Shown: positions 14,410-61,930, counted from the first letter of the stretch. The stretch: 64,000 bases of DNA from an uncultured Hyphomicrobiales bacterium (GCA_964606895.1 CAZSHX010000004.1:26789-90788), one strand, 5' to 3'. The notes: generated from the sequence alone by a model not told the origin. Program-made: numbers and translations.

Positions 14410-14445
14410 ATAACAAATCCGATAACTTAAGCTATCGGATTTGTT
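14410..14445 (-). terminator. Stem-loop immediately 3' of the 14467..15081 gene
   Basis: caaatccgata-acttaagc-tatcggatttg forms an 11-bp perfect stem. The loop contains the palindromic cttaag. Flanks are AT-rich. Confidence 0.45.
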
Positions 14446-14466
14446 AATTGAATGACTATAATAAAG

Positions 14467-18166: not shown

Positions 18167-18253
18167 TTGATACTGTAAGGCGGTTTGACCGTATTGAAAA
18201 TAAAAGTCCCGTAAGAGTAACTAACTAACGGGACTGAATAAATAGAAACAAGT

Positions 18254-18493: not shown

Positions 18494-18685
18494 ATTTTAA
18501 AACCTTTCTATGTTAATCAAATTCTATATTATAAATACTTTTCAAATTTTCGCAAGTGCTTTTCGGCAAAAATATATATTAGCGACTAAGAAAGCAAGTA
18601 TAAATTTAAAAATGTATAAAAAATCCAAAACAAATTTATAATTAGACACTACGTCTATCATCTTTTTTTATTACGGTATTACGAA

Positions 18686-30528: not shown

Positions 30529-31173
30529 TCATAGAATAGAATATTTAATCAATGCTTTGGATTTGAAAAGTATATAGGTCTCAGTATTAGGTTTGACATT
30601 ATAGGTTACTCTTTTAATGATTCCTTTGCCTGGTGTAATGTAAAACTCTAATTTCAGTTTAGGAGAAACAGCTTCATATTTATAGCAGAAAAATGTTCCT
30701 GCAGAAGTACTGACAACTATACTGGTTTGGATTACAGTAATTTGGAAAGTTTCGTTGAAGTCGGGTATAAAGATTGAATATTTATCGTTTATATTGCAAG
30801 GATACTTAAAGAATAGTGAATTCACGAAAACACCATCATTATTTTTGTAAGTTACATAATATCCATCGGTCGAATTACTCGAGAAATAGGAATTGTTGGC
30901 ACTATTTGAAAACCATTTTGTAGCGGAAATTGTTGTATCAACAGTTATGGATTCATGCAAAGTATCGAAAGCAACTTCACTTTGATAGTCAGGGTCGTAT
31001 TCCACATCTTCATAAGTCCAACTATTGCCGATTTTCAAAGGAATAATCTCCTGAGACTTCGCTGGCGGTGGAGTATCGGTAGTTCCGGCACAGGAAATAA
31101 GCATAATGGCAACTAATGCTAAAATTACAAATCCGGTTAAACCGGAGGAAAAATATTTCTTATTCGTTGCCAT
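30529..31173 (-). CDS. Hypothetical lipoprotein
   Basis: 214 aa, VILALVAIMLISCAGTT lipobox. It overlaps the upstream T9SS gene by 14 bp, so the two are probably co-transcribed. Confidence 0.45.
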   Translation of the reverse strand: MATNKKYFSSGLTGFVILALVAIMLISCAGTTDTPPPAKSQEIIPLKIGNSWTYEDVEYDPDYQSEVAFDTLHESITVDTTISATKWFSNSANNSYFSSNSTDGYYVTYKNNDGVFVNSLFFKYPCNINDKYSIFIPDFNETFQITVIQTSIVVSTSAGTFFCYKYEAVSPKLKLEFYITPGKGIIKRVTYNVKPNTETYILFKSKALIKYSIL

Positions 31174-46454: not shown

Positions 46455-48143
46455 ATGAATCAAAAATTCTTTAAAATCAGCATCAATAGAACAAATAAAT
46501 TCGAATCCGGAAGACAATATTTTCCACCTACAGTTAGATTCTATCTGCTGATTTCTATTTTATTGTTCTCTTTTTCCTTTACCAATTTAAAAGCTGAAAA
46601 TCCCGTTAATCCTACTGATGCTGAGATTACCGCCCAAGCTCAGAAATTCCAGACAATCCTCCAAATGATTAGTAAATACTATAAAGACAGCGTTAATATA
46701 AGAAAAGTTAGTGAAGTGGCATTCACTGCCATGCTCAAAGATCTTGACCAATTTTCTGATTACTTTAGCACAGAACAGTACAAATCAATTAATGATAATT
46801 ATAAGGGAAGTACTTTGAGTACGGGTATAACCCTAATTTCTTTGAATGATACAATCACGGTTACAGGCGTTACAAAAGGCAGTCCGGCAGATTCTTTGGG
46901 AATATTTTCCGGAGATAAAATACTTTTTATAAATGGGCAAAATGCTATCAAAATGCCGGGGCAGGAAGCTGTTCAAAAGATTAACCAAAATCCTGATACT
47001 GCTGTTACTATTATCATCAAAAGAGGGTATTCGAGTTCACTTCAGGAGTTTCGAATAGTTAAAACCGAAGTTTTGATAACAACTATTTCCTCATTCTTTA
47101 TAATCCCGAAAACAGATATCGGATATCTCAAATTTGTTAAATTCTCTTCAATTGCAGATAAAGAATTCCTCGAAACTCTCGACAAACTTCACGACAAAGG
47201 AATGAAAAGTGTAATTATTGACCTTCGCGGCAATGCCGGAGGCTATCTGGAGCAGGTTTCACTGATGTGCGACGAGATTCTTCCCGGAAACGACACAATA
47301 ACATATACTCAGACGCGACACCCCGATTTTCTGCAAACCCATATTTCAAAAAACGGGCAAAAATATGAAGATTTACCCGTTGTGGTCATTATGGATGGTT
47401 CGTCAGCCTCGGCAAGCGAGATTCTCGCCGGAGCTGTTCAGGACTTAGACCGCGGTTTGGTCATCGGCACAATTTCATTCGGCAAAGGTTCCGTTCAAAA
47501 GCTATGGGAATTCAAAGACGGTTCGGCTTTTAGAATTACGGTAGCAGGGTATTGCACTCCCTCGGGAAGAAGCATCCAGAAATACACTTCCAAAGACCAG
47601 ATAGACCTGAGCCCTTCTGCTAAACTTGCAATGGGCGGAAATTCTCAAAAAGTAATTGACGAAATAAATAAAAAAGGCGGCGGCAAAGCTCAGCTACCTG
47701 TTTTCAAGACTTCAAAAGGAAGAACTGTTCTCGGCGGTGGTGGAATTTTCCCTGATTATTTCGTTAAGGACGACACAACCACTTTACTTACGCAGATACT
47801 GAGAACAAATGGATTATTTCTTGAGTTCTCATATATTTATCTTGCAGTCCAAAGGGAAGAAATAAATAAAAAATACGGTAAAGACTTTTTGCGATTTTTT
47901 AACGAATTTACTGTTGATGATAAGTTGATGCAGGATTTCATTCAATATGCCAAGAAAAAGAAAGTTTGGAATGAAAAAATGTACGAAACTGATAAAAATG
48001 TAATACAGGGATATGTAAAAGCTTATATATCTTATGCTCTTTGGGGCGACCCTGCTTATTTTCTTTCTTTGATGCCTTTTGATAAGCAAATTCAAAAAGC
48101 AGTTGAAGTTATGCCTGAAGCTAAAAAATTTGTTGGTAAATAA
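46455..48143 (+). CDS. C-terminal processing peptidase (S41 family, Ctp/Prc-like) with a PDZ domain
   Basis: PDZ domain: ITVTGVTKGSPADSLGIFSGDKILFINGQ. S41 core: VIIDLRGNAGGYLEQ, MDGSSASASEILAGA (catalytic Ser), FGKGSVQK (catalytic Lys). The likely ATG is at 46455. Confidence 0.8.
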   Translation: MNQKFFKISINRTNKFESGRQYFPPTVRFYLLISILLFSFSFTNLKAENPVNPTDAEITAQAQKFQTILQMISKYYKDSVNIRKVSEVAFTAMLKDLDQFSDYFSTEQYKSINDNYKGSTLSTGITLISLNDTITVTGVTKGSPADSLGIFSGDKILFINGQNAIKMPGQEAVQKINQNPDTAVTIIIKRGYSSSLQEFRIVKTEVLITTISSFFIIPKTDIGYLKFVKFSSIADKEFLETLDKLHDKGMKSVIIDLRGNAGGYLEQVSLMCDEILPGNDTITYTQTRHPDFLQTHISKNGQKYEDLPVVVIMDGSSASASEILAGAVQDLDRGLVIGTISFGKGSVQKLWEFKDGSAFRITVAGYCTPSGRSIQKYTSKDQIDLSPSAKLAMGGNSQKVIDEINKKGGGKAQLPVFKTSKGRTVLGGGGIFPDYFVKDDTTTLLTQILRTNGLFLEFSYIYLAVQREEINKKYGKDFLRFFNEFTVDDKLMQDFIQYAKKKKVWNEKMYETDKNVIQGYVKAYISYALWGDPAYFLSLMPFDKQIQKAVEVMPEAKKFVGK

Positions 48144-48162
48144 ACTTAATCGGAGAAACATT

Positions 48163-48972
48163 ATGAAAACATCTACCCGCTCAATCATGTTCTGGATATT
48201 ATCATTTGTGCTTATGGCACTTTTTGCAGTATATCAAAGAACAACAGGACCCACCTATCCCGTTAGTGGTAGTGTGGAAATCAATGCTCAAAAAATTAAA
48301 TATACTCTACCCAGATCCCACGGAGGTGATGGAGGAGAATGGGTGAAAATTACTGTACCCGACAAAACCGTAACGGGCACCATAACTCTCAAGAGGTTTA
48401 AAAGTGCAGATGAATGGAAAACGGTCGGTTTAATCCGCGAAGGTGATGTTCTGAAAGCTGAACTTCCTCATCAGGAACCTGCCGGAAAAGTCATCTATCA
48501 CATTGCACTTGCAGGGAAAGACGGAAATAAACAATTCTTATCCGAGCAACCCGTGGTCATCAGATTCAAGGGCGATGTCCCGATTTATTTCATTTTGCCT
48601 CATGTTATTTTCATTTTTGCGGCAATGTGGTTTTCAACCAGAACGGGATTGGAAGCAATTGCAAAAGGAGCAAATACTTACAAACTTGCAATGTGGACAA
48701 CTATTTTCTTCTTTATTTCAGGGCTGATTCTTGGTCCCATTGTTCAAAAATATGCTTTTGGAGCCTATTGGACGGGCTGGCCCTTCGGTCATGACCTTAC
48801 GGACAATAAAACTTTACTTGCTTTAATCATGTGGATTATAGCTCTTTGGAGGATTAAGAAGAATGGCTCTACAGTTTGGACACTTGTTGCGGCAGTAGTC
48901 TTATTCGTAATTTTTCTTATCCCGCACAGTGTGCTTGGTTCCGAAATTGACTATACCAAGTTACCGAAATAG
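48163..48972 (+). CDS. Hypothetical integral membrane protein
   Basis: ATG at 48163 (MKTSTRSIMFWILSFVLMALFAVY). Five to six TM helices and an extracytoplasmic roughly 110-aa domain. The ORF-track start at 48079 overlaps the ctp gene. Confidence 0.5.
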   Translation: MKTSTRSIMFWILSFVLMALFAVYQRTTGPTYPVSGSVEINAQKIKYTLPRSHGGDGGEWVKITVPDKTVTGTITLKRFKSADEWKTVGLIREGDVLKAELPHQEPAGKVIYHIALAGKDGNKQFLSEQPVVIRFKGDVPIYFILPHVIFIFAAMWFSTRTGLEAIAKGANTYKLAMWTTIFFFISGLILGPIVQKYAFGAYWTGWPFGHDLTDNKTLLALIMWIIALWRIKKNGSTVWTLVAAVVLFVIFLIPHSVLGSEIDYTKLPK

Positions 48973-48993
48973 TTTTAAGAGATTCATTCTTAA

Positions 48994-49030
48994 CAAAGTG
49001 CTTTTTCATACTGTATGAAAAAGCACTTTG
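48994..49030 (+). terminator. Strong hairpin terminator with a perfect 17-bp stem
   Basis: caaagtgctttttcata-ctg-tatgaaaaagcactttg, followed by tttattcc. Confidence 0.7.
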
Positions 49031-49087
49031 TTTATTCCATCTGTTCACTATAAATCTGAACAGCTAAAGTAAATTGCTTAAAAAAAT

Positions 49088-49120
49088 ATCCCTTCGCCAA
49101 AAAGTGAAGGGATTTTTTTC
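49088..49120. terminator. Bidirectional hairpin terminator between convergent genes
   Basis: atcccttc-gccaaaaagt-gaagggat is flanked by A7 upstream and T7 downstream, so either strand would produce a U-tract. It lies 25 bp beyond the stop of the 49145..51169 minus-strand gene. Confidence 0.6.
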
Positions 49121-49144: not shown

Positions 49145-51169
49145 TTATATCTTTACAAACTTCATTACTTTATCCCCAACTCGCACAAAATACATTCCCG
49201 ATGGCAAACCCGAAATGTCAATTCTTAAGCCCTCTCCTTCGGGGAGGGTTTGGGTGGGGTTCTTCAGGGTTTCACCGAAAACGTTGAAGATCCGGATGTC
49301 TGTTTTGGTCAAGGCATGCCTTGACCCTACAGAGATTTCTATATAATACTCTGCAGGATTGGGCGAGATTTGAAAATCATTATTGCTGAATTTTGGGTTA
49401 TCTTCAATATATGCGATATCGAAATCACTTATATCTGCTCTGAAGGCACCCCTGCCGGTTGTACCAGCAAAGACATGATTACCTGTTTTTAAAATCGAAC
49501 TTATCGTTGTCTTGTTCAAACCGTAATTCTTTTCTGTCCAAAAATCTTCATTGTCATTTGAGAAATAGACTCCTTCATTAGTGCCGGCAAAAATATTTTT
49601 CCCTTCAACAATAATGCACTTTACTACTAAATTATTAAGACCATTATTTTTTGTGACCCAATGGTCTCCAAAATCTGTTGAATAGAACAAACCACCGCCG
49701 TCAGTTCCTGCATAAATGTTTTTTCCCCGAACAGCAATGGAAAGAACACCTTGGGAAGTAAATCCCTCATATTTTGAGAACCAATCAATTCCATTGTTTG
49801 AAGAAACAAATACTCCATTTTCTGTAGTACCTGCGACAACAGAATTACCTTCGGCACAAATCGCCCTTACATCTCCCATATTCTTTGATTTCCAGTTTAT
49901 CCCGTTGTCATTCGAAATATAAATACCACCTGAAAAACCTGCAAAAATATTTTTTCCGTTAGCCTCAAGCCCAAGTATAAAGCTACTATTCAAAGTATCG
50001 CTAATCGTCCAGTTTATGCAGTTATCAACAGAATGAAATAATCCTCGGGATGTACCGGCAAATGTAAAATCATCATTTTCAGCAAGTTTATAAACGTGCT
50101 TGTTAGTTAATGTTTGATTACTTGTTAAATTCCAAGTCTCACCGTTATCAGATGATGAAAAAATTCCGTTACCAAGTGTACCGGCTTTTAAGTTTGTCCC
50201 ATCATATAAAAATGCAGTAACAGTTGTTGAACTTAATCCGTTGTTTTTTTCAGTCCAACTATCTCCAAAATCCTTCGAGAGGAATACCCCCCCACCGCCC
50301 ATAGCCGCAAAAATGTTATCATCTTTAAAGGCAATGTTGCGAATATTCGTATTTGACATGATTTCTGATTTTTCAACCCAGCTATCACCGTTATTTGTTG
50401 ATATGAAAATCTTACCGGATGACATGCCTGCAATTATTTTTTTATCTTTAATAGCCATCCATCCGACGGTTAGATCAGTTAAACCGATATTCTTTGAAAC
50501 CCATGTATTTGAACTATCAGCCAAGAAAAATACCCCAAGCATTGTCGCCGCAAAAACATTCTTTCCTTCAGTAACAATTTGCATAACTATTGGGAAATTG
50601 ATGCCATTATTATTCTGTACCCAGTTTTCCCCGCTGTCGGTCGAAATAAAAATCCCTCTGTCACGGGTAGCGGCAAAAACATTATTTCCCGAAAATGCTA
50701 CATTCAGAACCCAATTCGTAGAAAGACCATTACTTTTGTCCTGCCAGTTAACGCCGGAATCAGTTGAAACGAATATTCCGGTAGGAGTACCTGCATAAAC
50801 GGTATTTCCGTCGAAGGCAATACAATTAACCCTGTGGTCAAGCAATCCTGTATTTTTTGGGGTCCAGCTGTTCCCACTATCATTTGAAGAAAAGATGCCG
50901 TCACCCCACGTTCCTGCTAAGATAATATTCTGCCGAATTGCAACAGATTTGAGAAAAAGGTTTGTTAATCCTGTGTTTTTTTCAATCCAACTGTCGCCAT
51001 TGTCAGTTGAAAGAAAAACGCCTCCCCCCCAGGTTCCGCAAAATATATTGTTCTCCCTGAAAGCAATTGAATTTATTGTCCCTCCGTTCAATCCGGAATT
51101 GTGTGGCTCCCATTTGGAATATAAATGCTGAATCATGATTAAAAGCAAAATAATAATAATTTTTTTCAT
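49145..51169 (-). CDS. BNR/Ycf48-like beta-propeller repeat protein with a T9SS C-terminal sorting domain
   Basis: 674 aa. Signal peptide. More than 12 repeats of GT..(G/R)G(I/V)F.S.(D/N).G..W. C-terminal ISPNPAEYYIEISVG...GMYFVRVGDKVMKFVKI. Confidence 0.7.
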   Translation of the reverse strand: MKKIIIILLLIMIQHLYSKWEPHNSGLNGGTINSIAFRENNIFCGTWGGGVFLSTDNGDSWIEKNTGLTNLFLKSVAIRQNIILAGTWGDGIFSSNDSGNSWTPKNTGLLDHRVNCIAFDGNTVYAGTPTGIFVSTDSGVNWQDKSNGLSTNWVLNVAFSGNNVFAATRDRGIFISTDSGENWVQNNNGINFPIVMQIVTEGKNVFAATMLGVFFLADSSNTWVSKNIGLTDLTVGWMAIKDKKIIAGMSSGKIFISTNNGDSWVEKSEIMSNTNIRNIAFKDDNIFAAMGGGGVFLSKDFGDSWTEKNNGLSSTTVTAFLYDGTNLKAGTLGNGIFSSSDNGETWNLTSNQTLTNKHVYKLAENDDFTFAGTSRGLFHSVDNCINWTISDTLNSSFILGLEANGKNIFAGFSGGIYISNDNGINWKSKNMGDVRAICAEGNSVVAGTTENGVFVSSNNGIDWFSKYEGFTSQGVLSIAVRGKNIYAGTDGGGLFYSTDFGDHWVTKNNGLNNLVVKCIIVEGKNIFAGTNEGVYFSNDNEDFWTEKNYGLNKTTISSILKTGNHVFAGTTGRGAFRADISDFDIAYIEDNPKFSNNDFQISPNPAEYYIEISVGSRHALTKTDIRIFNVFGETLKNPTQTLPEGEGLRIDISGLPSGMYFVRVGDKVMKFVKI

Positions 51170-51180
51170 GTTTTTTATCC

Positions 51181-53625
51181 TTATATCTTCACAAATTTCC
51201 CAACTTTTTCCCCCACCCTCACAAAATATATTCCAGGAGACAAACCCGAAACATCAATTTTTTCTTTCCATTCCGTTTCAAAAACTTTTAAGCCGAGAGT
51301 AGAAAAGATTTGAATTGTTTTGATATTCTTTAAAGTATGTAAATAAAGATGATCGACAGCGGGATTAGGACTTAACTGTGATGAAAAATCAGATTGTCGG
51401 ATATCTTCATTCACATCAGTGATTATATCTAATTTTGCTACAAATACATCACCATCGACATACTCGTGATTAGGTTTACCGATAGGCTCATAAGCATTTG
51501 GAGTTGTGGGAAAATCTGTAGAATTTGTTGCGCCAGCTATTATTATTGAACCGGCATCATCTATATCAATTAATGAACCTTCCTCCCATGCGATTCCTCC
51601 AAGATATGTTGAAAATAACAATTTCGATAAATCAGGATTCATTTTGCTGATGAAAGCATCCCCGAATGCACCAATATCTAAATTTGTTCCGTTGTTTTGG
51701 GTTTGGATAGCATCTTTTGTCAAAGGAAAATCGTCTGTCCATGTATTACCGATTAAAAAAACATTGTTTAAACTGTCGAGTATCATATCGTGACAATCCG
51801 AATCCCATCTCCCGCCTAATAAAGTAGAACTTATTAAAGCAGAGCAATCTTTATTAAATTTAGATATGAAAAGCATCCCGTCCCCGAAATATTTTCTTTG
51901 ATATGCATTTGGTGTAGTCGGAAAATCTTCCTGTGGTGTAGTTCCGGCTATGTATGGATTCCCTTCAGTATCTAGTTTTATTTTATTGATTGACATGCCT
52001 CTTTTAGGATTGCCAAAATATGTTGAAAATAATAATTTTTCGCAATTAGAATCAAATTTACTTATGAATCCTGAAACGGGAAAATCGTTATTTGTGTTGA
52101 TTTTTTTTTGATAGGCATTAGTTGAAATTTGGAAATCTTTGGATTCTGTTGCACCTGTGATATATATATTCTTATCCTTATCAATTATCATACTTTTTGG
52201 TGAATCCCAACCGGAACCTCCAAAAAATGAAGAAAATACAATTCCTGATAAATCAGGTTTAAACTTTGTGATGAATGCATCTGTCTGTCCGGATATTTTC
52301 TTTTGATATGCTCTGGAAGTTATCGGAAAATCAACAATATTCGAATCTGCCGGTTTAATATATCCTAAGACATAAGAATATCCTTCGTCATCAATAAAAG
52401 AATCATATAATTCATATGTGCCGGGACTATTTAAATTTGTATCACAGCCGAATAAGGTTGAATTAATAATTTTTGTTCCTGAACTATCGAATTGAGTTAT
52501 GAATATATTGTTATTACCATGAGGAATTCCTTTGAGTTTTTTTTGATAAGCATTTAATGTTGTAGGAAAGTCGTCTGCAGCTAAGTCGTAACTAATAGCT
52601 GTACCAATAACATTGATTTTGTTATTATGTATAATTATTTTATATGGATGCGTACCCAGATTTGATGAATCTCCGCCAAAATAACTTGAATAAATTAACT
52701 TTGAACCATCAGCTGAAAGAACTGAAAAGAAACCTGTTCCATTATTTTTTTTCATCGCATTTTCAGTAATTGGATAATCTTTTGAGTTAGTATATCCAGT
52801 AATAAATATATTCCCTGCTTTATCATGTGTAATAGAATTAGGGTGGTCATCTCTATAGCCATGTATATAAGTTGAAAAAACTAATGGGTCAATAATTAAA
52901 TCGTATGTTTTATCGTATTGATTTGCATCAAAACTTAAAAGGTCGTTGTTAAATTGGATTTTTGCAGGAATATCTTTCTTTTGATTTTGTATTAACTGGT
53001 ATGAGAATAAGTCCTTATGCTCAATTGTTCCTAATATTGTCGATATAAGCACTTTCCCATTATTCAACCAAATCGAGTCTGCACCCTCAAAATTTATTTT
53101 TATTTCAGAAATATTAGCTCCCGGATGAACAATAAAATCATATCTGAATTGATTTTGCTGGAAATACAGCCGCATATCAATTCCATCATATAGATTATCA
53201 ATGAGAACTTCTTTGAAGTGTGAAACATTTGTTGCCCATTTTAATTTATCACTGCCAATAAAATAATTATAGTATGAAGAAAGTTTATTGACTCCTGAAA
53301 TATTTTTTCTTTCCAAATTAAAATTTGAATTTGCAAACTGCATCTTTATGACTTGACTCAGAACCTCTCTTTCCTGATTGTTTATCCCTTTATCTTTAAT
53401 ATCATAATCAATTTTATTTCGAGTGAAACATTTTGGATCAGGATTACACTCATTTTGATAATAATCGAAAACAATATCTCTATCAGTTACCCATATATTG
53501 CAGCCAGGAAGATTAGCAAAGAATTTTACTTCCGAATTCCACTGACCTTTGTTTTCAACGAAAAAACTCTCTTTTGCAAAAGCAAAATTGGATAAAATTA
53601 AAACCACTAATAATATTTTTCTCAT
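51181..53625 (-). CDS. SBBP beta-propeller repeat protein with a T9SS C-terminal sorting domain
   Basis: 814 aa. Signal peptide. Repeats (F/Y)S(S/T)(Y/F)(F/L)GG...D......D..GN(I/V)(Y/F)(I/L)(T/A)G.T.S.DFP.T. C-terminal LSPNPAVDHLYLHTL...GIYFVRVGEKVGKFVKI. Confidence 0.7.
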   Translation of the reverse strand: MRKILLVVLILSNFAFAKESFFVENKGQWNSEVKFFANLPGCNIWVTDRDIVFDYYQNECNPDPKCFTRNKIDYDIKDKGINNQEREVLSQVIKMQFANSNFNLERKNISGVNKLSSYYNYFIGSDKLKWATNVSHFKEVLIDNLYDGIDMRLYFQQNQFRYDFIVHPGANISEIKINFEGADSIWLNNGKVLISTILGTIEHKDLFSYQLIQNQKKDIPAKIQFNNDLLSFDANQYDKTYDLIIDPLVFSTYIHGYRDDHPNSITHDKAGNIFITGYTNSKDYPITENAMKKNNGTGFFSVLSADGSKLIYSSYFGGDSSNLGTHPYKIIIHNNKINVIGTAISYDLAADDFPTTLNAYQKKLKGIPHGNNNIFITQFDSSGTKIINSTLFGCDTNLNSPGTYELYDSFIDDEGYSYVLGYIKPADSNIVDFPITSRAYQKKISGQTDAFITKFKPDLSGIVFSSFFGGSGWDSPKSMIIDKDKNIYITGATESKDFQISTNAYQKKINTNNDFPVSGFISKFDSNCEKLLFSTYFGNPKRGMSINKIKLDTEGNPYIAGTTPQEDFPTTPNAYQRKYFGDGMLFISKFNKDCSALISSTLLGGRWDSDCHDMILDSLNNVFLIGNTWTDDFPLTKDAIQTQNNGTNLDIGAFGDAFISKMNPDLSKLLFSTYLGGIAWEEGSLIDIDDAGSIIIAGATNSTDFPTTPNAYEPIGKPNHEYVDGDVFVAKLDIITDVNEDIRQSDFSSQLSPNPAVDHLYLHTLKNIKTIQIFSTLGLKVFETEWKEKIDVSGLSPGIYFVRVGEKVGKFVKI

Positions 53626-53634
53626 AATTAATCT

Positions 53635-55161
53635 CTATATTTTAATGAATTTACTTACTTGATTACCTACCCACACAAAATATACCCCCGACGGCAAATC
53701 CGAAACGTCAATTCTTTGTCCTCCGCTGGCGGAGGTGTCTGCGGAGCAGACGGAGGTGGACTCTTCCTGCCCAAACACATTGTAAATCCTAAGAACTGGA
53801 TTCCTCACTTCGTGCGGAATGACGGTTAGGTTGAATGATATTACAATAAAATCTTCTGCAGGGTTCGGTTGAATGGAAAAATTATCCAAGGCCTTAATTT
53901 CTTGTTGCTCATTTATCCCATCGGGTTTCTCGATTTCTATGGCACCAATGGAACGTGATGTAATTGAAAATTGATTGCCGTAAAAATCGGTGGTTGGCTC
54001 TGTCTCGGTCATGCCCTTTCCTAAAGCAGGACTGCCCACAACGAGATGAAAGTCATTGCCCGAACCATCAGCGAAGATTTGCGTTCCTGAGCCATAAATC
54101 ATTGGATTTTGGTCCTTTATGGCATCCAAATCCGGAGTATCCCAATATGGTCCTTTAAATGACGGATTCGTTATGCCATAATAAATATTTTTCCCGAAGC
54201 TTGCCGCCCCCGCCGGCTGTATTCCTCCATTAATATAAGCTGAAGAACCAAAAGCAAATATATTATTTTCAATTCTGTTTCCTGATAATGACGGGTACAG
54301 ACTGCTCGTGGTAAGAAAACGCATGGTTGCCTGTCCGCAATTGTAAAAAGTATTGTTAATCACTTTGCAATCAACAGCCGAAGACAGAGCTAATCCCCGA
54401 TAGCCGCCAATGATTATGTTAGAATAAAATTTAAGATTTTTGACTTCAAATTTATCTTCGGGGCAGTAGAACTCTGCACCGGTGTCGCCACCAAGTTCAA
54501 ACGCAACCCATGGGTCTTTCGAGGCGTTAATGAAAATATTTCGTTCCATGGTAATATTGGATGCACCGCCCTTGATATGCCCCCCGGTCAGGCAATTTTC
54601 AAATCGGTTAAGGCGTATAATCCCATTCCGGCAAACATTATAATCCATAGTTGAAAGTCCCGACATATCTTTGAAAATGCAATTCGTCACTTCGAAGCTG
54701 TCCACACCGCCAAATTTAAAAGCGGCTATTGCTTTCGGGTCAGTCGCATTTGAAAAGACGCAACTGTCCACCTTGATAAATTTTGACTGAGTTTCACAGC
54801 TACCGCTATTGTCAACGCTGAAGAGCCTTCCCGGATATTTGGCATTACCTTTGAAATTCAGATTAAGGAACTTAATATACTCACAACTCATAAACTGCCA
54901 GCAACCTGAAATATCTATTTCATCATTTTCAAACCGGCTGATAACTATCGGGTTGGATTTATTGCCCTTTAATTTGGATATACCCTGATAGCCGCCGTAA
55001 GAACCAGCATGCAGAAAAACCGTATCGCCCGGATGAATTGCCACGGCATTCACAGCGGCTTCAATATTCGGATACGTCTGCCCGGGACCAAGGTGGACAT
55101 TGCCCAAGCAAGACATTGAAAATAAAAAGATAGACAACAATGCTATAAATAAAGCTTTCAT
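53635..55161 (-). CDS. Right-handed parallel beta-helix (pectate-lyase-fold) protein with a T9SS C-terminal sorting domain
   Basis: 508 aa. Signal peptide. Repeated NxxF(x)N/G-rich coil motifs (INNTFYNCGQ, IENNIFAFGS). C-terminal IQPNPAEDFIVISFN...GVYFVWVGNQVSKFIKI. Confidence 0.6.
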   Translation of the reverse strand: MKALFIALLSIFLFSMSCLGNVHLGPGQTYPNIEAAVNAVAIHPGDTVFLHAGSYGGYQGISKLKGNKSNPIVISRFENDEIDISGCWQFMSCEYIKFLNLNFKGNAKYPGRLFSVDNSGSCETQSKFIKVDSCVFSNATDPKAIAAFKFGGVDSFEVTNCIFKDMSGLSTMDYNVCRNGIIRLNRFENCLTGGHIKGGASNITMERNIFINASKDPWVAFELGGDTGAEFYCPEDKFEVKNLKFYSNIIIGGYRGLALSSAVDCKVINNTFYNCGQATMRFLTTSSLYPSLSGNRIENNIFAFGSSAYINGGIQPAGAASFGKNIYYGITNPSFKGPYWDTPDLDAIKDQNPMIYGSGTQIFADGSGNDFHLVVGSPALGKGMTETEPTTDFYGNQFSITSRSIGAIEIEKPDGINEQQEIKALDNFSIQPNPAEDFIVISFNLTVIPHEVRNPVLRIYNVFGQEESTSVCSADTSASGGQRIDVSDLPSGVYFVWVGNQVSKFIKI

Positions 55162-55529
55162 AATGTTTACTGCTAATCATTTTACGAATTACTCAATTCC
55201 AAAAATACTAAACTTTTTGTGGAGTTTTTAAAATAATTGTAAAACTGAAAATAATTCATAAATTTATAGTAAAAAGTTTGATAAAAAAATATGAATTTGT
55301 TAGATTGAAATTTAGCAGTATCGTCTATAATATTATATCATTTATTAGGTTACTTTTGTATTATGCAAAATTACTATTTTGCATATAGTACAAGTAAGTA
55401 AGACAAATTGGGATATAAGCTAAGACAAAGCAGAATTTACTGTTTTGTTCGCTTTCTGATGAAAAATATACCGAAATAATTTCGGGAAATTAATCGAACT
55501 AATAAGTATTATTAATAAATGGAGACATC

Positions 55530-55988
55530 ATGAAATTACTAACCGGAATTATTGCCCTCATTTTCGCATTAAGTATGAACTTAAAAGCGGAAAGCGACAC
55601 TTTGCTCATTAACATGAAAGACGGCAAAGTAGAAAAATTCGCAATTACTCAAATTCAAAAAATCAAATTTGAGAATATAACCAAAGTTGAAGACCAAATC
55701 CTGAAACCGCAAAACCTTTCCGTAACAGGGAATTTCCCTAATCCTTTCACAGATAAAACTGAAATCGAGTTTGAGACGAAAGACTTCGGAAGTGTTGAAA
55801 TCGTAATTTTCGATAACTCAGGTAAACAAATTCAAAATCTTGAATGCCTGAATTGTACAGCCGGCAAAAATACTCTGATTTGGAACTGTTTGGATAAAAA
55901 TAATAATCGCGTACAGAATGGAACTTATTTCTACGAAGTACGATTCGGTAAAGAAGTGCTTTTACGGAAAATGATTTTAGTAAAATAA
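55530..55988 (+). CDS. Small secreted protein: one copy of a roughly 28-aa N-terminal repeat plus a T9SS C-terminal sorting domain
   Basis: 152 aa. Signal peptide. DTLLINMKDGKVEKFAITQIQKIKFEN. Then GNFPNPFTDKTEIEFETKD...GTYFYEVRFGKEVLLRKMILVK. Confidence 0.6.
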   Translation: MKLLTGIIALIFALSMNLKAESDTLLINMKDGKVEKFAITQIQKIKFENITKVEDQILKPQNLSVTGNFPNPFTDKTEIEFETKDFGSVEIVIFDNSGKQIQNLECLNCTAGKNTLIWNCLDKNNNRVQNGTYFYEVRFGKEVLLRKMILVK

Positions 55989-56048
55989 ATGCTATAAATC
56001 ATTTGAATGATTAATTTTATATAATTCAAATAAATAAAGGAAAATAAC

Positions 56049-58910
56049 ATGAAAAAATATTTACTCTTTTTAGTGGTTTTAGTGCTGTCGGTTCCCCTTT
56101 TTGCTCAACAGCCTAAGGTTAATTTATTTCTGAACGACGGAACAACCAAACAGCTAAATCTCTCGGACATTGAAGATTTGAAATTCATTATTGGAAGCAG
56201 TGCCTGCTTTATTAAAATATTCTATGAAGATTCTCTAATAGAAAATTACCAAACAAAGAATATCGAGAAAATGAAATTTGAAACTGATGCAAACAAATTT
56301 CAGGTACTGAATATTTACATTGATGGTTCGGCAAATAGTTTCAAATTAGCTGACCTCGACAGCATTAATTTCTTCATCGCTGAAACTCCCGTACCTCAAA
56401 TTGCGAGTATAAATCCTACTTCCGGAAAAATCGGGATTGAAGTAACATTGGTTGGTAAGAATTTTGGAGAAACACAAGGAACAAGTATTGTTTCTTTCAA
56501 AGGGAAAAATGCAATTGATTACAAAAAATGGAGCGATACACTGATTAAAATCAATGTTCCAGCCGGAGCCACAACCGGAAAAGTTTCCGTTACCGTCAAA
56601 GGAATTAAAAGCAATGAAGTGGATTTCACGATTCCATCGGAATTACTGACTTTAACACCAACTTCAGGCAAAATTGGAGATATAATCACAATCGCCGGGA
56701 CAGCATTTGGTACTGTTCAAGCCGGCAGTTTAATAACATTTAATGATACCAATGCAACAGAATATTCCTCCTGGAGCGATAATCAAATCAAGGTAAAAGT
56801 TCCAAAAGGTGCTATGTCCGGCAATGTTAATTTAATTATTAATGGACAAAAAACCAATGGGCTTAATTTTACTGTTTTGCCAAAATTTGAGAGTATAACT
56901 CCTTCATCAGGAAAAATCGGGGATACTGTCATACTTGCCGGCTCAGGATTCGGAATACTTAAAGATACAAGTTTTGTTTTCTTCACCGGAAAGAAAGCTG
57001 TTGACTATATAAGTAAAACCACTACTGAAATAAAATTAAAAGTTCCGGTTGGAGCTAAAACGGGTGCTGTTTATATATCATCAGGAGGAAATAAAAGCAA
57101 CGAACTGAATTTTAGTATTTTCCCCCAGATTACAAAAATTGCTCCCGATTCAGCCGGTGTTGCCGATGAAGTAACAATCACCGGAACCGGTTTTGGAGAC
57201 AAAGCAGGTGCAAGTTTTGTAACTTTTAACGATATCAAAGCAAATGAAGTTACAAGCTGGAGCGATATCAAGATAGTATTAAAAGTTCCTGCCGGGGCTG
57301 TTTCCGGTACTGTTTGGATTAACATGTCGGATATTAAAAGCAATGAAGTGAAATTTACGGTTATACAACACCTCCTGAGCGTTTCGCCAAATGCTTTAAA
57401 AATCGGAGACCAGATGACAATCACAGGCACAAACTTTGGTGCAAACAGGGAAACAAATACAGTTTTATTCAACAACATAACGGCTATAAATTATGATTCA
57501 TGGACTGATACAGAAATAAAATTGAAAATTCCTGAAAATGTCGTTAGCGGCAAACTCTATGTGTTGATTGGCACAAAGAAAAGTAATCCGGGGGATTATT
57601 CAATTATACCTGAATTTTTTGGTATCAGCCCAACATCCGGAAGATTAGGGAATTTAGTCAATATTACAGGCAAAGGTTTTGGTGATGTTCAGGGTTCGGG
57701 ATATGTTTCCTTTACCGGAGGAAATGCGACCGAGATTCTCAGTTGGTCAAATACAGCTATTAGCCTGAAAGTTCCGGCATCTGCTAAGACCGGTAAAGTT
57801 TCTGTGAACGCAAGCGGACAAAAAAGCAATGAATTGGACTTTTCGATTTTACCAACAGTTTTCAGTATCTTACCTTATGTCGGATTGCCCGGAGATCAGG
57901 TTACTTTAACAGGTGTAAGCTTTGGAGCAAATCGTGATGCAAGTTTTGTGTCATTTAAAAATGCAAATGCCGTTAGCTACACCAGCTGGACAGATACCGA
58001 AATTAAAGTAATTCTGCCTGTGGGTGCTGAAACCGGAAAAGTTTCAGTAACTGTTGGGACAGAAAAAAGCAACGAAGTTGATTTCTATTTGACACCGGTT
58101 ATATCCGGAATTTCGCCTAACAGCGGGAAAATTGGAGATCAGGTAACAATTTCAGGTAGTAACTTTGGAGCTACAAGAGGCACAAGTACGATGACTTTCA
58201 ATACTGCAAGTGTAACTACTTTTAATAGTTGGAGCAATACCTCAATTACGGTTGTTGTTCCGGTTGGGACGAGGACCGGGAAAGTTTCAGTTGTTGTGAA
58301 TAATATAAAAAGCAATGAAGTTGATTTCACTGATACAGACATCTTTTATGAAACTGTTACCATAGGCACTCAGGAGTGGATGCTTAAAAATCTTGATTCG
58401 GCAAGATACCGCAATGGTGATGCTATCCCGCAAGTTACCGATGCAACTGAGTGGGCAAATTTAACAACCGGTGCATGGTGCTATTATAACAATAGTTCAG
58501 CTAACAATGAGCCTTACGGCAAACTGTATAATTGGTATGCCGTTAATGATTCCCGCGGTATTGGTCCATCTGGGTTTCACATCCCTACGGATACTGAGTT
58601 GCAGACATTAATTGATTACCTGGGCGGTGGTACAATTGCCGGTGGAAAAATGAAAGAATCCGGAACAAGTCATTGGGCAAATCCAAATACCGGTGCTACA
58701 AATGAAAGCGGGTTTACTGCGGTTGGAGGTGGTTATCGTATAGGAACAGGTGCATTTCAGCAATTCAACAATGCAGGTTCTTACTGGTCACGAACAGAAG
58801 CCGACACATACAATGGTTATCACAGAGTGATGTATTATAATAATGCGACTATAGCAAGATATGCCAATGGAAAAGTTATCGGTTTTTCAGTTCGTTTAAT
58901 AAAAGATTAA
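56049..58910 (+). CDS. Large secreted protein: three N-terminal short repeats, eight tandem IPT/TIG-like 81-aa repeats, and a C-terminal FISUMP domain
   Basis: 953 aa. Signal peptide. The repeat P.I.SI.P.SGKIGD.VTI.G..FG...G.S.V.F........SWSD..I.V.VP.GA.TG.V.V...G.KSNE.DF occurs eight times. C-terminal TIGTQEWMLKNLD...AWCYYNNSSANNEPYGKLYNWYAV...GFHIPTDTELQTLIDYLGG...AGGKMKESGTSHW...ESGFTAVGGGYRIG matches the TIGR02145-type pattern. Confidence 0.7.
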   Translation: MKKYLLFLVVLVLSVPLFAQQPKVNLFLNDGTTKQLNLSDIEDLKFIIGSSACFIKIFYEDSLIENYQTKNIEKMKFETDANKFQVLNIYIDGSANSFKLADLDSINFFIAETPVPQIASINPTSGKIGIEVTLVGKNFGETQGTSIVSFKGKNAIDYKKWSDTLIKINVPAGATTGKVSVTVKGIKSNEVDFTIPSELLTLTPTSGKIGDIITIAGTAFGTVQAGSLITFNDTNATEYSSWSDNQIKVKVPKGAMSGNVNLIINGQKTNGLNFTVLPKFESITPSSGKIGDTVILAGSGFGILKDTSFVFFTGKKAVDYISKTTTEIKLKVPVGAKTGAVYISSGGNKSNELNFSIFPQITKIAPDSAGVADEVTITGTGFGDKAGASFVTFNDIKANEVTSWSDIKIVLKVPAGAVSGTVWINMSDIKSNEVKFTVIQHLLSVSPNALKIGDQMTITGTNFGANRETNTVLFNNITAINYDSWTDTEIKLKIPENVVSGKLYVLIGTKKSNPGDYSIIPEFFGISPTSGRLGNLVNITGKGFGDVQGSGYVSFTGGNATEILSWSNTAISLKVPASAKTGKVSVNASGQKSNELDFSILPTVFSILPYVGLPGDQVTLTGVSFGANRDASFVSFKNANAVSYTSWTDTEIKVILPVGAETGKVSVTVGTEKSNEVDFYLTPVISGISPNSGKIGDQVTISGSNFGATRGTSTMTFNTASVTTFNSWSNTSITVVVPVGTRTGKVSVVVNNIKSNEVDFTDTDIFYETVTIGTQEWMLKNLDSARYRNGDAIPQVTDATEWANLTTGAWCYYNNSSANNEPYGKLYNWYAVNDSRGIGPSGFHIPTDTELQTLIDYLGGGTIAGGKMKESGTSHWANPNTGATNESGFTAVGGGYRIGTGAFQQFNNAGSYWSRTEADTYNGYHRVMYYNNATIARYANGKVIGFSVRLIKD
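56388..58331 (+). repeat. Array of eight 243-bp (81-codon) in-frame tandem repeats encoding IPT/TIG-like domains
   Basis: Repeat boundaries recur at ...NEVDFTI / PSELLTLTPTSGKIGD..., ...NFTV / LPKFESITPSSGKIGD... and so on. The copies are diverged at the nucleotide level. Confidence 0.7.
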
Positions 58911-58936
58911 TCAGGATTTTAAGAAAATCAAGGGGT

Positions 58937-58966
58937 TTGTCATCCCTGCGTTCGCTGGGATGACAA
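58937..58966 (+). terminator. Hairpin terminator after the 56049..58910 gene
   Basis: ttgtcatccc-tgcgttcgct-gggatgacaa forms a 10-bp perfect stem, with a T-rich stretch (ttatataaatttgcttttttt) downstream. Confidence 0.5.
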
Positions 58967-59044
58967 TTATATAAATTTGCTTTTTTTAAAAGCCGATTAT
59001 TAATGATGTAACTTTGGAATAATGTTTTTTTAATTAAAATTAAC

Positions 59045-60463
59045 ATGACAATAAAAAAGAAAATTCTTTTATCAATATTTCTACTTTTTTTCTTTGTTAT
59101 GGAGGATAATTCCTCTGTCCTCTTTGGTGCTTATCCGCCCGAAGTGGAAGAAAGAATTAAACAGGTAGAAGCTAATTTATCTAACGGCCTTCGTGATACA
59201 TTAAAATGGTCTTTGGATAAGCGGATGTATTATTACAATATGCAAGGGCTGAGCATTGCTGTTGTTCACAATTATGAAATTGAATGGGCAAAAGGTTATG
59301 GTTGGGCAGACAAAGCAGATAAACGTCCTGTAACTCCCGAAACTCTTTTTCAGGCGGCATCTGTGAGCAAGTCATTAAATGCTGTCGGGGTTATGAAATT
59401 AGTTCAGGAAAATCAGTTGGACCTGTATTCTGATATCAATAATTTTCTGACTTTATGGAAATTTCCCTACGATTCATTGGCAAAGAACAAGAAGATTTCG
59501 ATTGCAAATCTATTGAGTCATACTGCAGGACTGGGGATTCATGGTTTTGTCGGGTATAAATTACAGGATACTTTACCAACTATTCCCCAAATTCTTGATG
59601 GAAAGAAACCTGCTAATACTCCACCGGTAAGATCCGAGTTCGAACCCGGCATCAAATATCAGTATTCCGGGGGTGGCGTGATGATTTCCCAGCAGATTGT
59701 CATGGAAACTACAAAGCTTCCTTATGAACAATATATGCAAGAGAATGTACTCAACCCAATGGGTATGACAAGTAGTTTTTACAATCAACCGCCGCCATCA
59801 GATAGACTTAAATCCCTGGCAACTGCATATTATCAGAGCACTCCGCTTGAGGGGAACTATGTTATATATCCTGAGCAAGCCGCCGCAGGTTTATGGACTA
59901 CCCCAACTGATTTGTGCAAATTTATTATTGAAATTCAATTGTCGTTGCAAGGTAAATCAAATAAGGTATTGTCAAAGGAAACTGCACAGAAGATGCTAAC
60001 TCCATATATTGATAAGGTTGCGGCTCTTGGAGTTTTTATTGATAACAACGGAATTGCAAAATATTTTATGCATTCCGGAGCTAACGATGGATTCAGGTCG
60101 CTCTATTATGGAAGTCTTGAAGACGGTAACGGAGTGGCAATGATGGTAAATTCATACAATAGCAACATAATGTATGAACTTCTTAATAGTGTTCTTAATG
60201 TTTATCAATGGAAAGGTTACTACAAACCAACCGAGATTACAGAATTTCCAATTGAAAAAGTTAATCCGATTGTGCCGAATCCTGCAACTGATTTCATAGA
60301 ATTAATTGAGGATATTGGTAACGGGCGAATTGAGATTTTCAATTCAATCGGTGTGCGAATTATGAATTTCGACAAAACAAACAAAATAGATGTTAGTATG
60401 CTTTCTGATGGGCTGTATTTTCTTCGGGCAGGAGACAAAGTTTATAGTTTCATCAAAAAATGA
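59045..60463 (+). CDS. Beta-lactamase/transpeptidase-fold serine hydrolase (class C / PBP-like) with a T9SS C-terminal sorting domain
   Basis: Signal peptide. The catalytic SxxK is present in FQAASVSKSLNAVGVMKLV, with YSGGG nearby. C-terminal IVPNPATDFIELIED...GLYFLRAGDKVYSFIKK. Confidence 0.65.
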   Translation: MTIKKKILLSIFLLFFFVMEDNSSVLFGAYPPEVEERIKQVEANLSNGLRDTLKWSLDKRMYYYNMQGLSIAVVHNYEIEWAKGYGWADKADKRPVTPETLFQAASVSKSLNAVGVMKLVQENQLDLYSDINNFLTLWKFPYDSLAKNKKISIANLLSHTAGLGIHGFVGYKLQDTLPTIPQILDGKKPANTPPVRSEFEPGIKYQYSGGGVMISQQIVMETTKLPYEQYMQENVLNPMGMTSSFYNQPPPSDRLKSLATAYYQSTPLEGNYVIYPEQAAAGLWTTPTDLCKFIIEIQLSLQGKSNKVLSKETAQKMLTPYIDKVAALGVFIDNNGIAKYFMHSGANDGFRSLYYGSLEDGNGVAMMVNSYNSNIMYELLNSVLNVYQWKGYYKPTEITEFPIEKVNPIVPNPATDFIELIEDIGNGRIEIFNSIGVRIMNFDKTNKIDVSMLSDGLYFLRAGDKVYSFIKK

Positions 60464-60508
60464 TGCTGAGTTTTAAAAGAATATTTTTAAAATAAATATG
60501 GATAAATA

Positions 60509-61402
60509 ATGAAAAAATTGATACTTCTAATAGGGATTTTCTTGTGTGTGAATGTGCTCTATTCTGCAAATCCGTTAATTAAATTCTACCTAAAAGATGC
60601 TACTTTCAAATCCTATGATATAGATAATATTAATGTGATGAGTTTAGTTAAAATTCAAAACAATTCAACCATGAAAATCTATTATCAAAAATCTCAATCC
60701 GTGTCTTATGCTTCAAAAGACATCGACTCGATAAGATTTGAAAAAACCGACAATCTGATTGTTTACATTAATGGTGTTCAACCTACTAAGTATGAATTAG
60801 CTGAAATTGACAGCATTCTTTTTCTGCCTTCATCAGCTAATGAATCTGTCGTAATTGGGGGACAGGTGTGGATGCTGAAAAATCTGGATGTATCGGAATA
60901 CCGCAATGGAGACCCAATCCCGGAATGCACCGACTCTGCAACATGGATGACTCTAAAGACAGGTGCATGGTGCTATTACAACAATGATCCCGCAAATAAT
61001 ACAGTTTATGGAAAGCTTTACAACTGGTATGCAATAAATGATCCAAGAGGCATAGCCCCTGTTGGCTGGCGTGTGGGAAACGATTCCGACTGGACAGTAT
61101 TAACAGATTTTGTTAAAGGTGAAATTAACGGCGGAGGTAAGTTGAAAGAAGCCGGTACGAGTCATTGGTCGGCTCCGAACACGAGTGCAACTAACGAAAG
61201 CGGTTTTACGGCACTTCCCGGAGGCTACCGTATTGGTAATGGTTTTGGCAGAATAAAGGATGCCGCAGCATTTTGGATGGCTACCGAAGTGGATAATGAT
61301 AATGCATGGTCAAGATACTTGTTCTCATTTAAAGCCAGTATTTCGAAAAATCCGAATTACAAAGGAACAGGTTTTTCGGTAAGGTGTATCAAGGATGAAT
61401 AG
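60509..61402 (+). CDS. Secreted FISUMP-domain protein with three N-terminal short repeats
   Basis: 297 aa. Signal peptide. Repeats LIKFYLKDATFKSYDIDNINVMSLVKI / MKIYYQKSQSVSYASKDIDSIRFE / LIVYINGVQPTKYELAEIDSILFL. Then VIGGQVWMLKNLD...AWCYYNNDPANNTVYGKLYNWYAIND...VGWRV..DSDW..L...GGKLKEAGTSHW...ESGFTALPGGYRIG. Confidence 0.7.
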   Translation: MKKLILLIGIFLCVNVLYSANPLIKFYLKDATFKSYDIDNINVMSLVKIQNNSTMKIYYQKSQSVSYASKDIDSIRFEKTDNLIVYINGVQPTKYELAEIDSILFLPSSANESVVIGGQVWMLKNLDVSEYRNGDPIPECTDSATWMTLKTGAWCYYNNDPANNTVYGKLYNWYAINDPRGIAPVGWRVGNDSDWTVLTDFVKGEINGGGKLKEAGTSHWSAPNTSATNESGFTALPGGYRIGNGFGRIKDAAAFWMATEVDNDNAWSRYLFSFKASISKNPNYKGTGFSVRCIKDE

Positions 61403-61446
61403 ATTACTCCCCGAAGCAAAATATTGTAATAGTTATATAAAACAAA

Positions 61447-61478
61447 AAAGCAGGTTTGAAACTTGCTTTTTTTTTATT
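61447..61478 (+). terminator. Rho-independent terminator after the FISUMP gene
   Basis: aagcagg-tttgaaa-cttgctt (one G.U pair) followed by T9. Confidence 0.55.
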
Positions 61479-61576: not shown

Positions 61577-61930
61577 TCAATAATTTAGCTGGTACCCATA
61601 GTTGATTTCAAATATGTTGGAAGGTAAACTTTTGCGATCTTCAATTTGGGCAATTATTCTGAATTTTATAGGGATGCCGTTCCTGTGCCCTGTGTACAGA
61701 TAGCTGGGACGCGAAACTCTGTCCAGCTCCAGCCAATTTAAGGAGTTGCTGGCTTGAATTTCGATAACGTATTCGGTTTCATACGGATTCCCGTTACGGT
61801 TCCAGGATAGCCTGATTTCACCGCCGATTAGGATTTCTCCGAATAATTGAACCGGTATTCTCGGTATAAAGTCGGGCAGTGTCCTGCTTGGGAAAATGCC
61901 CTGCATCGTATTCATCATTGTCGCTACCAT
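61577..61930 (-). CDS. Hypothetical small protein (possible Ig/FN3-like fold)
   Basis: 117 aa. GEIRLSWNRNGNPYETEYVIEIQASNSLNWLELD. No recognisable catalytic motifs. Confidence 0.35.
   Translation of the reverse strand: MVATMMNTMQGIFPSRTLPDFIPRIPVQLFGEILIGGEIRLSWNRNGNPYETEYVIEIQASNSLNWLELDRVSRPSYLYTGHRNGIPIKFRIIAQIEDRKSLPSNIFEINYGYQLNY

Follow-up and report, generated by a model that had tools for sequence, protein, structure and literature searches.

A conserved pairing of a small type IX sorting-domain protein with module-bearing lectin-fold proteins, apparently undescribed, in an ordinary cluster of predicted secretion cargo genes

The 64,000-nucleotide (nt) DNA stretch CAZSHX010000004.1:26789-90788 (assembly GCA_964606895.1), hereafter the window, carries at positions 49145-61402 (~12 kb) seven consecutive genes, A to G, five of which encode proteins with C-terminal type IX secretion system (T9SS) sorting domains. 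This cargo cluster is ordinary, and it encloses a conserved and apparently undescribed variant: a cassette in which the gene for a small sorting-domain protein, D, precedes genes for larger proteins, E and G, that begin with a rare N-terminal module and show no sorting-domain match. Gene order in other genomes leads us to favor, with some reserve, a functional coupling of D with E and G. All seven open reading frames (ORFs) that an earlier reading of the sequence alone (the sequence-only reading) had placed here were recovered at the same positions. The cassette and the cargo gene F, which lies within it, are as follows.

D, 55530-55988, plus strand, 152 amino acids (aa): mini-protein with a PorU/FlgD_ig-like T9SS sorting domain (69-149)
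E, 56049-58910, plus strand, 953 aa: three-unit module, 8 IPT/TIG repeats and FISUMP domain
F, 59045-60463, plus strand, 472 aa: serine hydrolase of beta-lactamase/penicillin-binding protein (PBP) (S12-like) fold with a type-A sorting domain (aa 410-472)
G, 60509-61402, plus strand, 297 aa: putative signal peptide, three-unit module and FISUMP domain

A small sorting-domain gene precedes module-bearing genes

D begins with a putative signal peptide (residues 1-20) and a single beta unit of ~30 aa (22-50); a linker then leads to the sorting domain (69-149), which scores 32.6 bits with PF18962 (Por_Secre_tail; gathering score, 27 bits), 32.8 bits with TIGR04183 (cut-off, 23 bits) and 31.9 bits with PF13860. 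Its family comprises 28 clusters with 49-65% identity, and almost every one is exactly 152 aa long; the N-terminal unit, SDTLVIxLKNxQxEKIAISQIQKIxFENIT, and three cysteines of the sorting domain are the most conserved features of the family. The sorting domain of D is of a different subtype from the one common among its neighbors, as both FlgD_ig and the C-terminal part of the PorU model are matched by 27 of 27 members of the D family, and the C-terminal region of the PorZ model by 6 of 27; A, B and C match neither PorU nor FlgD_ig. The cysteines, arranged C-x2-C ... C (residues 106, 109 and 120 of D), are unexpected in a T9SS sorting domain and possibly form a disulfide or metal site. A match of D to NCBIfam Lepto_7_Nterm (19.7 bits; cut-off, 43), found in 1 of 27 members, was rejected as chance or very remote similarity.

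E and G are paralogous, their FISUMP domains being 50% identical and their N-terminal ~110 residues matching at E = 4e-11. In E, a putative signal peptide is followed by the module (aa 21-112), eight IPT/TIG repeats (TIG, 1.5e-71 in 8 stretches) and a FISUMP domain of C-type-lectin fold (aa 766-953; PF09603, 3.5e-42, 145.2 bits; TIGR02145, 101 bits). G has the module at aa 20-110 and FISUMP at aa 114-296 (PF09603, 5.6e-46, 157.6 bits; TIGR02145, 97.4 bits). With cut-offs of 33.9 bits for PF09603 and 41.65 bits for TIGR02145, both are FISUMP proteins, as the sequence-only reading had it, and both belong to the C-type-lectin/FGE-sulfatase-like fold. The G family, of ~300 aa, is conserved over its full length at 47-57% identity. 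An AlphaFold2 model of G reached a predicted local distance difference test score of 88 with an 87-sequence alignment and 50 with a 15-sequence alignment; a sequence search of the PDB gave no match for G.

The module is built of three units of ~30 aa that follow the pattern h-x-h-x-h-x-D-G-x(4)-h-x-h-x-x-I-x-x-h-x-F. Within the window, the unit occurs in D (one copy), E and G (three each) and in no other ORF. Among 1.84 billion representative proteins, the module profile has 168 matches at E <= 1e-3, in every case at residues ~20-113, immediately behind the putative signal peptide; E is its second-best match (114 bits). For the best 150 of the 168 module proteins, the C-terminal heads are FISUMP in 90 and FGE-sulfatase in 12 (usually after TIG repeats), with Lcl_C, Laminin_G_3, LRR and CBM96 among the others. 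The module is hardly ever combined with a sorting domain in cis: a C-terminal PF18962 domain is present in 3 of the 123 module proteins of at least 250 aa (P0223, P0233 and P0299). None of the Pfam or NCBIfam models scanned covers the module, and Pfam DUF8237 (PF26707), considered as a candidate, gave only a faint match on one homologue.

Loci were collected independently from G homologues and from D homologues. In all nine cases with readable downstream DNA (9/9), the D-like gene is followed on the same strand by a module-first gene without a sorting domain, with a gap of -4 to +89 bp, and this order is kept across 46-60% sequence divergence. In the window, E starts 60 bp downstream of D and the array reads D-E-[F]-G. 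A Kapabacteria metagenome-assembled genome (MAG; L009) has D, a 959-aa E-like gene, two HicAB pairs and a G-like gene, while L103/L104 have D followed by two G-like genes (D-G-G'). At L094, D precedes a 300-aa G-like gene, then toxin-antitoxin genes and a TIG plus FGE-sulfatase gene (N-terminal module not checked). The D-like gene of L016 is likewise followed by a module gene; that of L033 overlaps the gene of its 1052-aa partner by 4 nt; the partner in the Ignavibacteria MAG L095 is a 1183-aa TIG and FISUMP protein; and that in L098, cut by the contig end, starts with the module. One D thus accompanies several module proteins in the arrays of the window, L009 and L103.

The partner at L096 is a 944-aa protein with Big_7 and Laminin_G_3 domains that matches G at E = 1e-7. 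Because this partner has no FISUMP domain and keeps the three units, the association of D, as read from these loci, tracks the module and not the tip domain. The flanks of the cassette differ at each locus (UvrA, RuvC, ATP synthase, GH3 and others), and neither F nor the minus-strand cargo genes A, B and C (described below) ever recur at the other D cassettes; on this comparison, therefore, the conserved unit is D plus one or more module proteins. F, whose gene is absent from the cassette in L009, L094 and L103, looks like a variable insert in a D-E-G array.

Other genes were noted in or beside the cassettes. Toxin-antitoxin pairs occur in L009 (8412-9538, HicAB twice), L094 (11655-12844, YoeB and PemK types) and L103 (388-836, RelB/ParE); in L009 and L094 they stand between module genes, the position that F has in the window. 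An Omp28 protein with a sorting domain adjoins the cassette of L009.

Probable functional coupling of D with E and G

On this comparative evidence, we consider it moderately probable that D is functionally coupled with E and G. The strict D-then-module order in unrelated neighborhoods, with gaps no wider than 89 bp, argues against the alternative that D and E/G are simply co-transcribed and otherwise independent secreted proteins, as does L096, where the association is with the module and not with the tip domain. Under that alternative, D would be a small T9SS cargo protein with a role of its own, for example as a surface peptide or a PorA-like regulatory ligand; E and G would be periplasmic or leave by another route, such as vesicles; and the N-terminal motif common to D and E/G would stem from shared ancestry, or serve folding or quality control in the periplasm, rather than docking. 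There are precedents for parts of it: PorA of Porphyromonas gingivalis is known as a small protein, mostly sorting domain, with a non-cargo role (PMC7712824, PMC12152298), and vesicles have been invoked for extracellular proteins that lack sorting domains in T9SS organisms (PMC6247017). It leaves aside that the module is combined with an in-cis sorting domain in just 3 of 123 proteins, despite their adhesin architecture of stalk plus lectin tip. We regard mere co-transcription as possible, though rather unlikely.

A broader pattern is seen around FISUMP genes. A set of 80 metagenome loci collected by way of the FISUMP domain, together with four others, was scanned with a home-made sorting-domain hidden Markov model (HMM) that was checked against Pfam. 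Here a same-strand sorting-domain gene lies directly upstream of the FISUMP gene in 18/84 cases versus downstream in 2/91 (Fisher p = 6e-5), and small (<200 aa) sorting-domain ORFs lie directly upstream in 10 of 11 (p = 1.5e-7), statistics that are not phylogenetically independent, as the loci were picked by FISUMP/D homology and include related sequences. All nine of the small ORFs tested (9/9) exceed the PF18962 gathering score. By eye, a DTxYI...G....I.SI.F-type unit was found in both partners of the divergent pairs L017, L064 and L022/L026/L042, and the shared DTxYI-type unit is absent from the pairs L049, L051 and L092. Some FISUMP proteins carry a C-terminal sorting domain of their own (L050 5905-6819; P0223), and such proteins can therefore be T9SS cargo.

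Several points weigh against coupling, the sampling just described among them. First, the resemblance of the D unit to the E/G units is modest: with an HMM built without D, D is the best remaining ORF of the window at 12.5 bits (E = 0.004), and its unit is nearest to module unit 2 at just 9.5 bits. Second, G-like genes without an adjacent D-like gene occur in L006, L011, L014 and L015. Both observations also favor co-transcription of otherwise independent proteins. Third, FISUMP proteins may contain an internal sorting-domain-like immunoglobulin (Ig) domain (L044 283-1548, 23.9 bits, below cut-off; L050 4443-5771), so that a PF18962-like fold is not always a secretion signal. Finally, no core T9SS gene (SprA/Sov, PorK/L/M/N, PorU/V) lies within the 64-kb window, and no T9SS hitchhiker, piggyback or sorting-domain-less cargo is reported in the literature searched, in which no link between FISUMP and T9SS was found either.

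Three side observations concern the same loci. The internal Ig domains of L044 and L050 stand between an N-terminal motif and the lectin domain, and may be a fused counterpart of the split arrangement or a plain Ig spacer. In L006 (7810-9903 and 9989-10945), the G-like gene follows, after an 85-bp gap, a multicopper-oxidase cargo protein with a sorting domain. In L011, a DUF6029 and Omp28 pair (7140-9683) lies upstream of the G-like gene that has no adjacent D.

A more specific form of coupling, to which we give only tentative credence, is that D acts as a trans-acting T9SS adaptor, so that E and G would be exported as hitchhikers and/or tethered to the surface through the sorting domain of D. 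In this scheme, the single beta unit of D would dock onto, or complement, the three-unit N-terminal module of E and G, and the PorU-like sorting domain of the docked D would give them access to the T9SS and/or surface anchorage in trans. E and G would be held by the N terminus with the C-terminal lectin tip facing outward, whereas an in-cis sorting domain at the C terminus would put the lectin tip against the membrane. One D adaptor could then serve an exchangeable set of tips (FISUMP, FGE-sulfatase, LamG and LRR relatives). The T9SS moves folded proteins through the very large SprA barrel (PMC9251779), and co-transport of a complex is thus physically conceivable.

Predicted T9SS cargo in the window

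Besides D and F, the following genes of the window encode sorting-domain proteins.

A, 49145-51169, minus strand, 674 aa: Sortilin/BNR-type beta-propeller with a type-A sorting domain (aa 601-672)
B, 51181-53625, minus strand, 814 aa: DUF7948 and SBBP beta-propeller with a type-A sorting domain (aa 752-812)
C, 53635-55161, minus strand, 508 aa: right-handed beta-helix with a type-A sorting domain (aa 432-507)
X, 6523-7713, minus strand, 396 aa: Sortilin/BNR propeller with a type-A sorting domain (PF18962, 38.7 bits)
Y, 31160-32458, minus strand, 432 aa: Reg_prop beta-propeller with a type-A sorting domain (PF18962, 47.1 bits)

PF18962 scores above its gathering score at the extreme C terminus of A (40.5 bits), B (36.0 bits), C (34.2 bits), D and F (33.6 bits), with matches ending 0-6 residues from the C terminus. 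The TIGR04183 search that the sequence-only reading had proposed as a check gave 29-33 bits, above cut-off, for A to D (30.8, 31.4 and 29.2 bits for A, B and C); F is not among the matches listed. E and G have no sorting-domain match. The region thus has five sorting-domain proteins, as that reading's own text listed, and not the six that it announced; X and Y, the two further cargo genes that it had pointed to and that are assigned here by PF18962 alone, bring the window to seven.

The passenger types had also been read correctly. A matches PF15902 (3.2e-17) and, below cut-off, an F510_1955-like glycosylhydrolase model, with a weak BNR match as its only hit in the PDB sequence search; B matches PF25778 (2.4e-59) and PF06739 (2.2e-26); C matches PF13229 (1.3e-09); and F matches PF00144 (3.4e-48), its closest solved relatives being 2qmi (a PBP-related peptidase), Flp and alkaline D-peptidase. 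X is a paralogue of A, 42 kb away, with ~40% identity over ~300 aa in several repeat registers, and the sorting domains of the two belong to different subtypes.

In translations read by eye, the N termini of A to G show a basic residue followed by a hydrophobic stretch. In the public annotation of the matching metagenome contigs, A, C and F are shorter (663, 493 and 454 aa), their starts being placed 11, 15 and 18 codons further downstream, and the hydrophobic N-terminal segment is lost; the longer ORFs restore a putative signal peptide, which is what a T9SS cargo protein needs. A, B, C, F, X and Y are standard T9SS type-A cargo, for which secretion is predicted. They would be exported by Sec, recognized by the T9SS through the C-terminal beta-sandwich, translocated, and released or attached to the surface. 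As in canonical type-A cargo (P. gingivalis RgpB and HBP35; Ignavibacteria carbohydrate-active enzymes [CAZymes] with the "Por" tail), a putative signal peptide precedes a functional passenger, which is followed by a ~70-aa C-terminal beta-sandwich; the only departure, in A, B, C and F, is a short-hairpin tail subtype, ...GMYFVRVGDKVxKFVKI, that is typical of the lineage.

Those homologues of D and G that bear a name belong to MAGs of "Ignavibacteria," "Candidatus Kapabacteria" and "Bacteroidota," and related loci carry flagellar genes, on which grounds the uncultured host is placed in the Ignavibacteria/Kapabacteria part of the Fibrobacteres-Chlorobi-Bacteroidetes (FCB) group. A further suggestion is that the C-terminal domains are generic Ig-like domains of FlgD_ig type in an organism with no working T9SS, the proteins being periplasmic or otherwise exported. 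The match of D to FlgD_ig in lineages with flagellar genes fits that suggestion, as do the lack of core machinery in the window and an older survey that, as cited in PMC5837995, confined the T9SS to Bacteroidetes. Nevertheless, the 64 kb encode seven proteins that combine a putative N-terminal signal peptide with a match above cut-off to TIGR04183 and/or PF18962 at the very C terminus. Moreover, TIGR04183 is reported to be confined to the FCB superphylum, with many members in lineages related to Ignavibacteria (PMC4737851), T9SS-type tails occur on the CAZymes of Melioribacter roseus, a member of such a lineage (PMC3534657), and BLAST evidence of an Ignavibacteriae T9SS has been noted (PMC5837995). 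We therefore hold generic Ig-like domains to be a highly improbable explanation.

Near X, three tandem genes at 398-6517 (minus strand) encode TPR-rich proteins of ~600-720 aa, two with an N-terminal PMT_2 domain (dolichyl-phosphate-mannose-type glycosyltransferase); this tandem is directly upstream of X and of a TPR/His_kinase sensor. A gene at 9793-14142 (minus strand) encodes a 1449-aa fusion of two BcrAD/BadFG-type ATPase domains and DUF2229 (CoA-enzyme activase type), and adjoins genes for a DUF2231 membrane protein and a rubrerythrin.

Relation of the cargo genes to the cassette

The sequence-only reading had joined the seven genes in a co-evolving, probably co-regulated island of surface proteins marked by near-identical tails, which would be gained or lost as a unit. 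This is largely refuted, and we now consider it improbable. A, B and C, described as convergent, are in fact co-directional, B lying 11 bp upstream of A and C 9 bp upstream of B; they diverge from D to G across a 368-bp intergenic region between C and D. G starts 45 bp downstream of F. Given gaps of 9, 11, 60 and 45 bp, the region forms two divergent operon-like units, C-B-A on the minus strand, led by C, and D-E-(F)-G on the plus strand. The tight C-B-A spacing would suit an island; at least two divergent transcription units, with a hairpin inside the second between E and F, would not.

Over 85 aa, the tails of A, B, C and F are mutually 35-49% identical, nearer to each other than to X and Y (23-35%), which would favor an island. 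The proposed consensus fits A, B, C and, more loosely, F; it does not fit D, which ends in ...GTYFYEVRFGKEVLLRKMILVK and has the other subtype. Nor are the tails near-identical: in A, B and C, which share the tail RIDVSGLxxGMYFVR[VI]GD[KR]VxKF[VI]K[IL], identity over the last 25 aa is 64-76% for protein and 72-79% for DNA. Third-codon positions of these tails, counted where the amino acid is conserved, are 56-68% identical, a divergence that speaks against recent DNA homogenization; recent gene conversion among the tails was accordingly rejected. In a different genome, two unrelated cargo proteins have the same kind of tail, RIDVSGLxPGMYFVRIGD[KR]VxKF[VI]KL (L011 15296-16678 and 16785-18125), and an A/B/C-type tail also ends P0233 (698 aa). 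Because of these occurrences on unrelated cargo, we read the A/B/C tail as a lineage-wide subtype and not as an island signature.

The usual marks of a genomic island (deviating composition, mobility or tRNA genes at the borders, presence or absence as a block) were not found. The GC content of the region, 0.32-0.39, is as in the rest of the window, which has no integrase or mobility gene, and no tRNA gene lies at the borders. Gene order is matched in two other ENA metagenome assemblies (L001, L002, L004 and L005), whose contigs encode identical B, D (P0121), E and G proteins; these therefore represent the same population and are not independent evidence for an island. Where the region was checked as a block in relatives, they keep D-E-G and not A, B, C or F. 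The flanking Ctp protease has its nearest species representative, 36% identical, in an Ignavibacteriales MAG, where the region downstream of the protease gene is unlike the A, B, C layout, as judged by ORF lengths and strands alone. From these comparisons, A, B, C and F are lineage-variable neighbors and not a conserved island. Sorting-domain genes are dense here, at 5 of 7 consecutive genes versus roughly 5-8% of genes in related loci, a density that is borderline by a rough binomial estimate over a whole genome of such windows. Clustering of T9SS cargo genes is common.

Outside the window, on the L004 contig, a tyrosine recombinase (Arm-DNA-bind_5 and Phage_integrase; 17447-18760) lies ~6.5 kb past the window's 3' end, after genes for a TPR-HisKA kinase, an HDOD/HD protein and another kinase. 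The same contig has a 65-aa ORF fragment with a sorting-domain-like tail (14357-14554). Downstream of G, an ORF of 117 aa (61577-61930, minus strand) is called as a gene in L005, whereas L004 calls a 47-aa ORF.

Hairpins and intergenic DNA

The hairpins of the region and the intergenic DNA between the two units are as follows.

48992-49032: hairpin between the gene at 48079-48972 (plus strand) and A; -23.5 kcal/mol, z -8.5
49088-49113: hairpin between the convergent gene at 48079-48972 (plus strand) and A; T-runs on both strands
55162-55529: C/D divergent intergenic region, 368 bp, AT-rich
58937-58966, plus strand: hairpin between E and F, GTCATCCC...GGGATGAC; -22.1 kcal/mol, z -3.7; no adjacent U-run
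61444-61472, plus strand: terminator-like hairpin after G; T-run

Strong terminators had been claimed at three sites. Hairpins are present at all of them, and the one at 49088-49113 is likely a bidirectional terminator. The one at 58937-58966 has no adjacent U-run and was not called in the terminator scan; it is possibly a weak or partial terminator.

The C/D intergenic region contains an imperfect palindrome (55350-55397) with 22-nt arms and a perfect core, ATGCAAAAT-TACT-ATTTTGCAT (55363-55384). It occurs once in the window, against 0.02 matches expected by chance, and could be an operator. No equivalent was seen upstream of D-like genes in other loci when the sequences were read by eye. A sigma-70 promoter scan was uninformative (55 sites versus 57 expected), and the window has no tRNA genes or Rfam matches.

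Discussion

The components of the cassette were compared with known systems. D shares its sorting-domain subtype with PorU and PorZ of P. gingivalis and is, like PorA, small and made up mostly of sorting domain. The passengers of PorU, PorZ and PorA show no similarity to D, and D is unlike all three in its conserved 30-aa unit, its three conserved cysteines and its being always encoded with module-bearing lectin proteins.

E and G were compared with other FISUMP proteins and with variable proteins of C-type-lectin fold (TvpA, Mtd, LdtA and the Lcl C-terminal domain), from which they are set apart by the distinctive N-terminal three-unit module. Many FISUMP proteins are reported to carry a lipoprotein signal (PMC5758913). 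G was considered as a lipoprotein and rejected, since the cysteine in its h-region is outside a lipobox context and not conserved in the family alignment; no lipoprotein signal was seen in E, whose putative signal peptide has no cysteine. As for a diversity-generating retroelement, the ORFs scanned with Pfam/NCBIfam contain no reverse-transcriptase domain, no search having been aimed at a template repeat. In both respects, E and G are unlike proteins of the TvpA/Mtd/LdtA type.

The pairing of a cargo-specific helper with a large adhesin has a counterpart in Flavobacterium, where the gene for SprF, a PorP-like outer-membrane barrel, adjoins that for SprB, a large adhesin and type-B cargo protein. 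In that system the cargo has a sorting domain, whereas the large protein of the cassette has none, and the helper is an outer-membrane barrel, whereas D is a small soluble sorting-domain protein. Hitchhiker (piggyback) export is established for the twin-arginine translocation (Tat) pathway and for peroxisomal import. The logic proposed here from gene context would be the same, with a signal-less partner carried by, or with, a signal-bearing one through a translocon for folded proteins.

For an FCB-group bacterium, a cluster of T9SS cargo genes is a routine finding. The analysis in addition defines a rare N-terminal module and a cassette that offers a simple two-protein system for the study of the T9SS. 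To our knowledge, all known T9SS substrates carry the sorting domain in cis. If D and E/G do act together, the rules for T9SS substrates would be wider than this, and proteins now scored as non-cargo could be exported; the pairing would also account for the display, in the correct orientation, of lectin-tipped proteins that have their binding site at the C terminus. If the adaptor scheme is true, it would be the first in which a T9SS signal comes from a partner in trans, and it would provide N-terminal anchoring for adhesins whose binding site is C-terminal.

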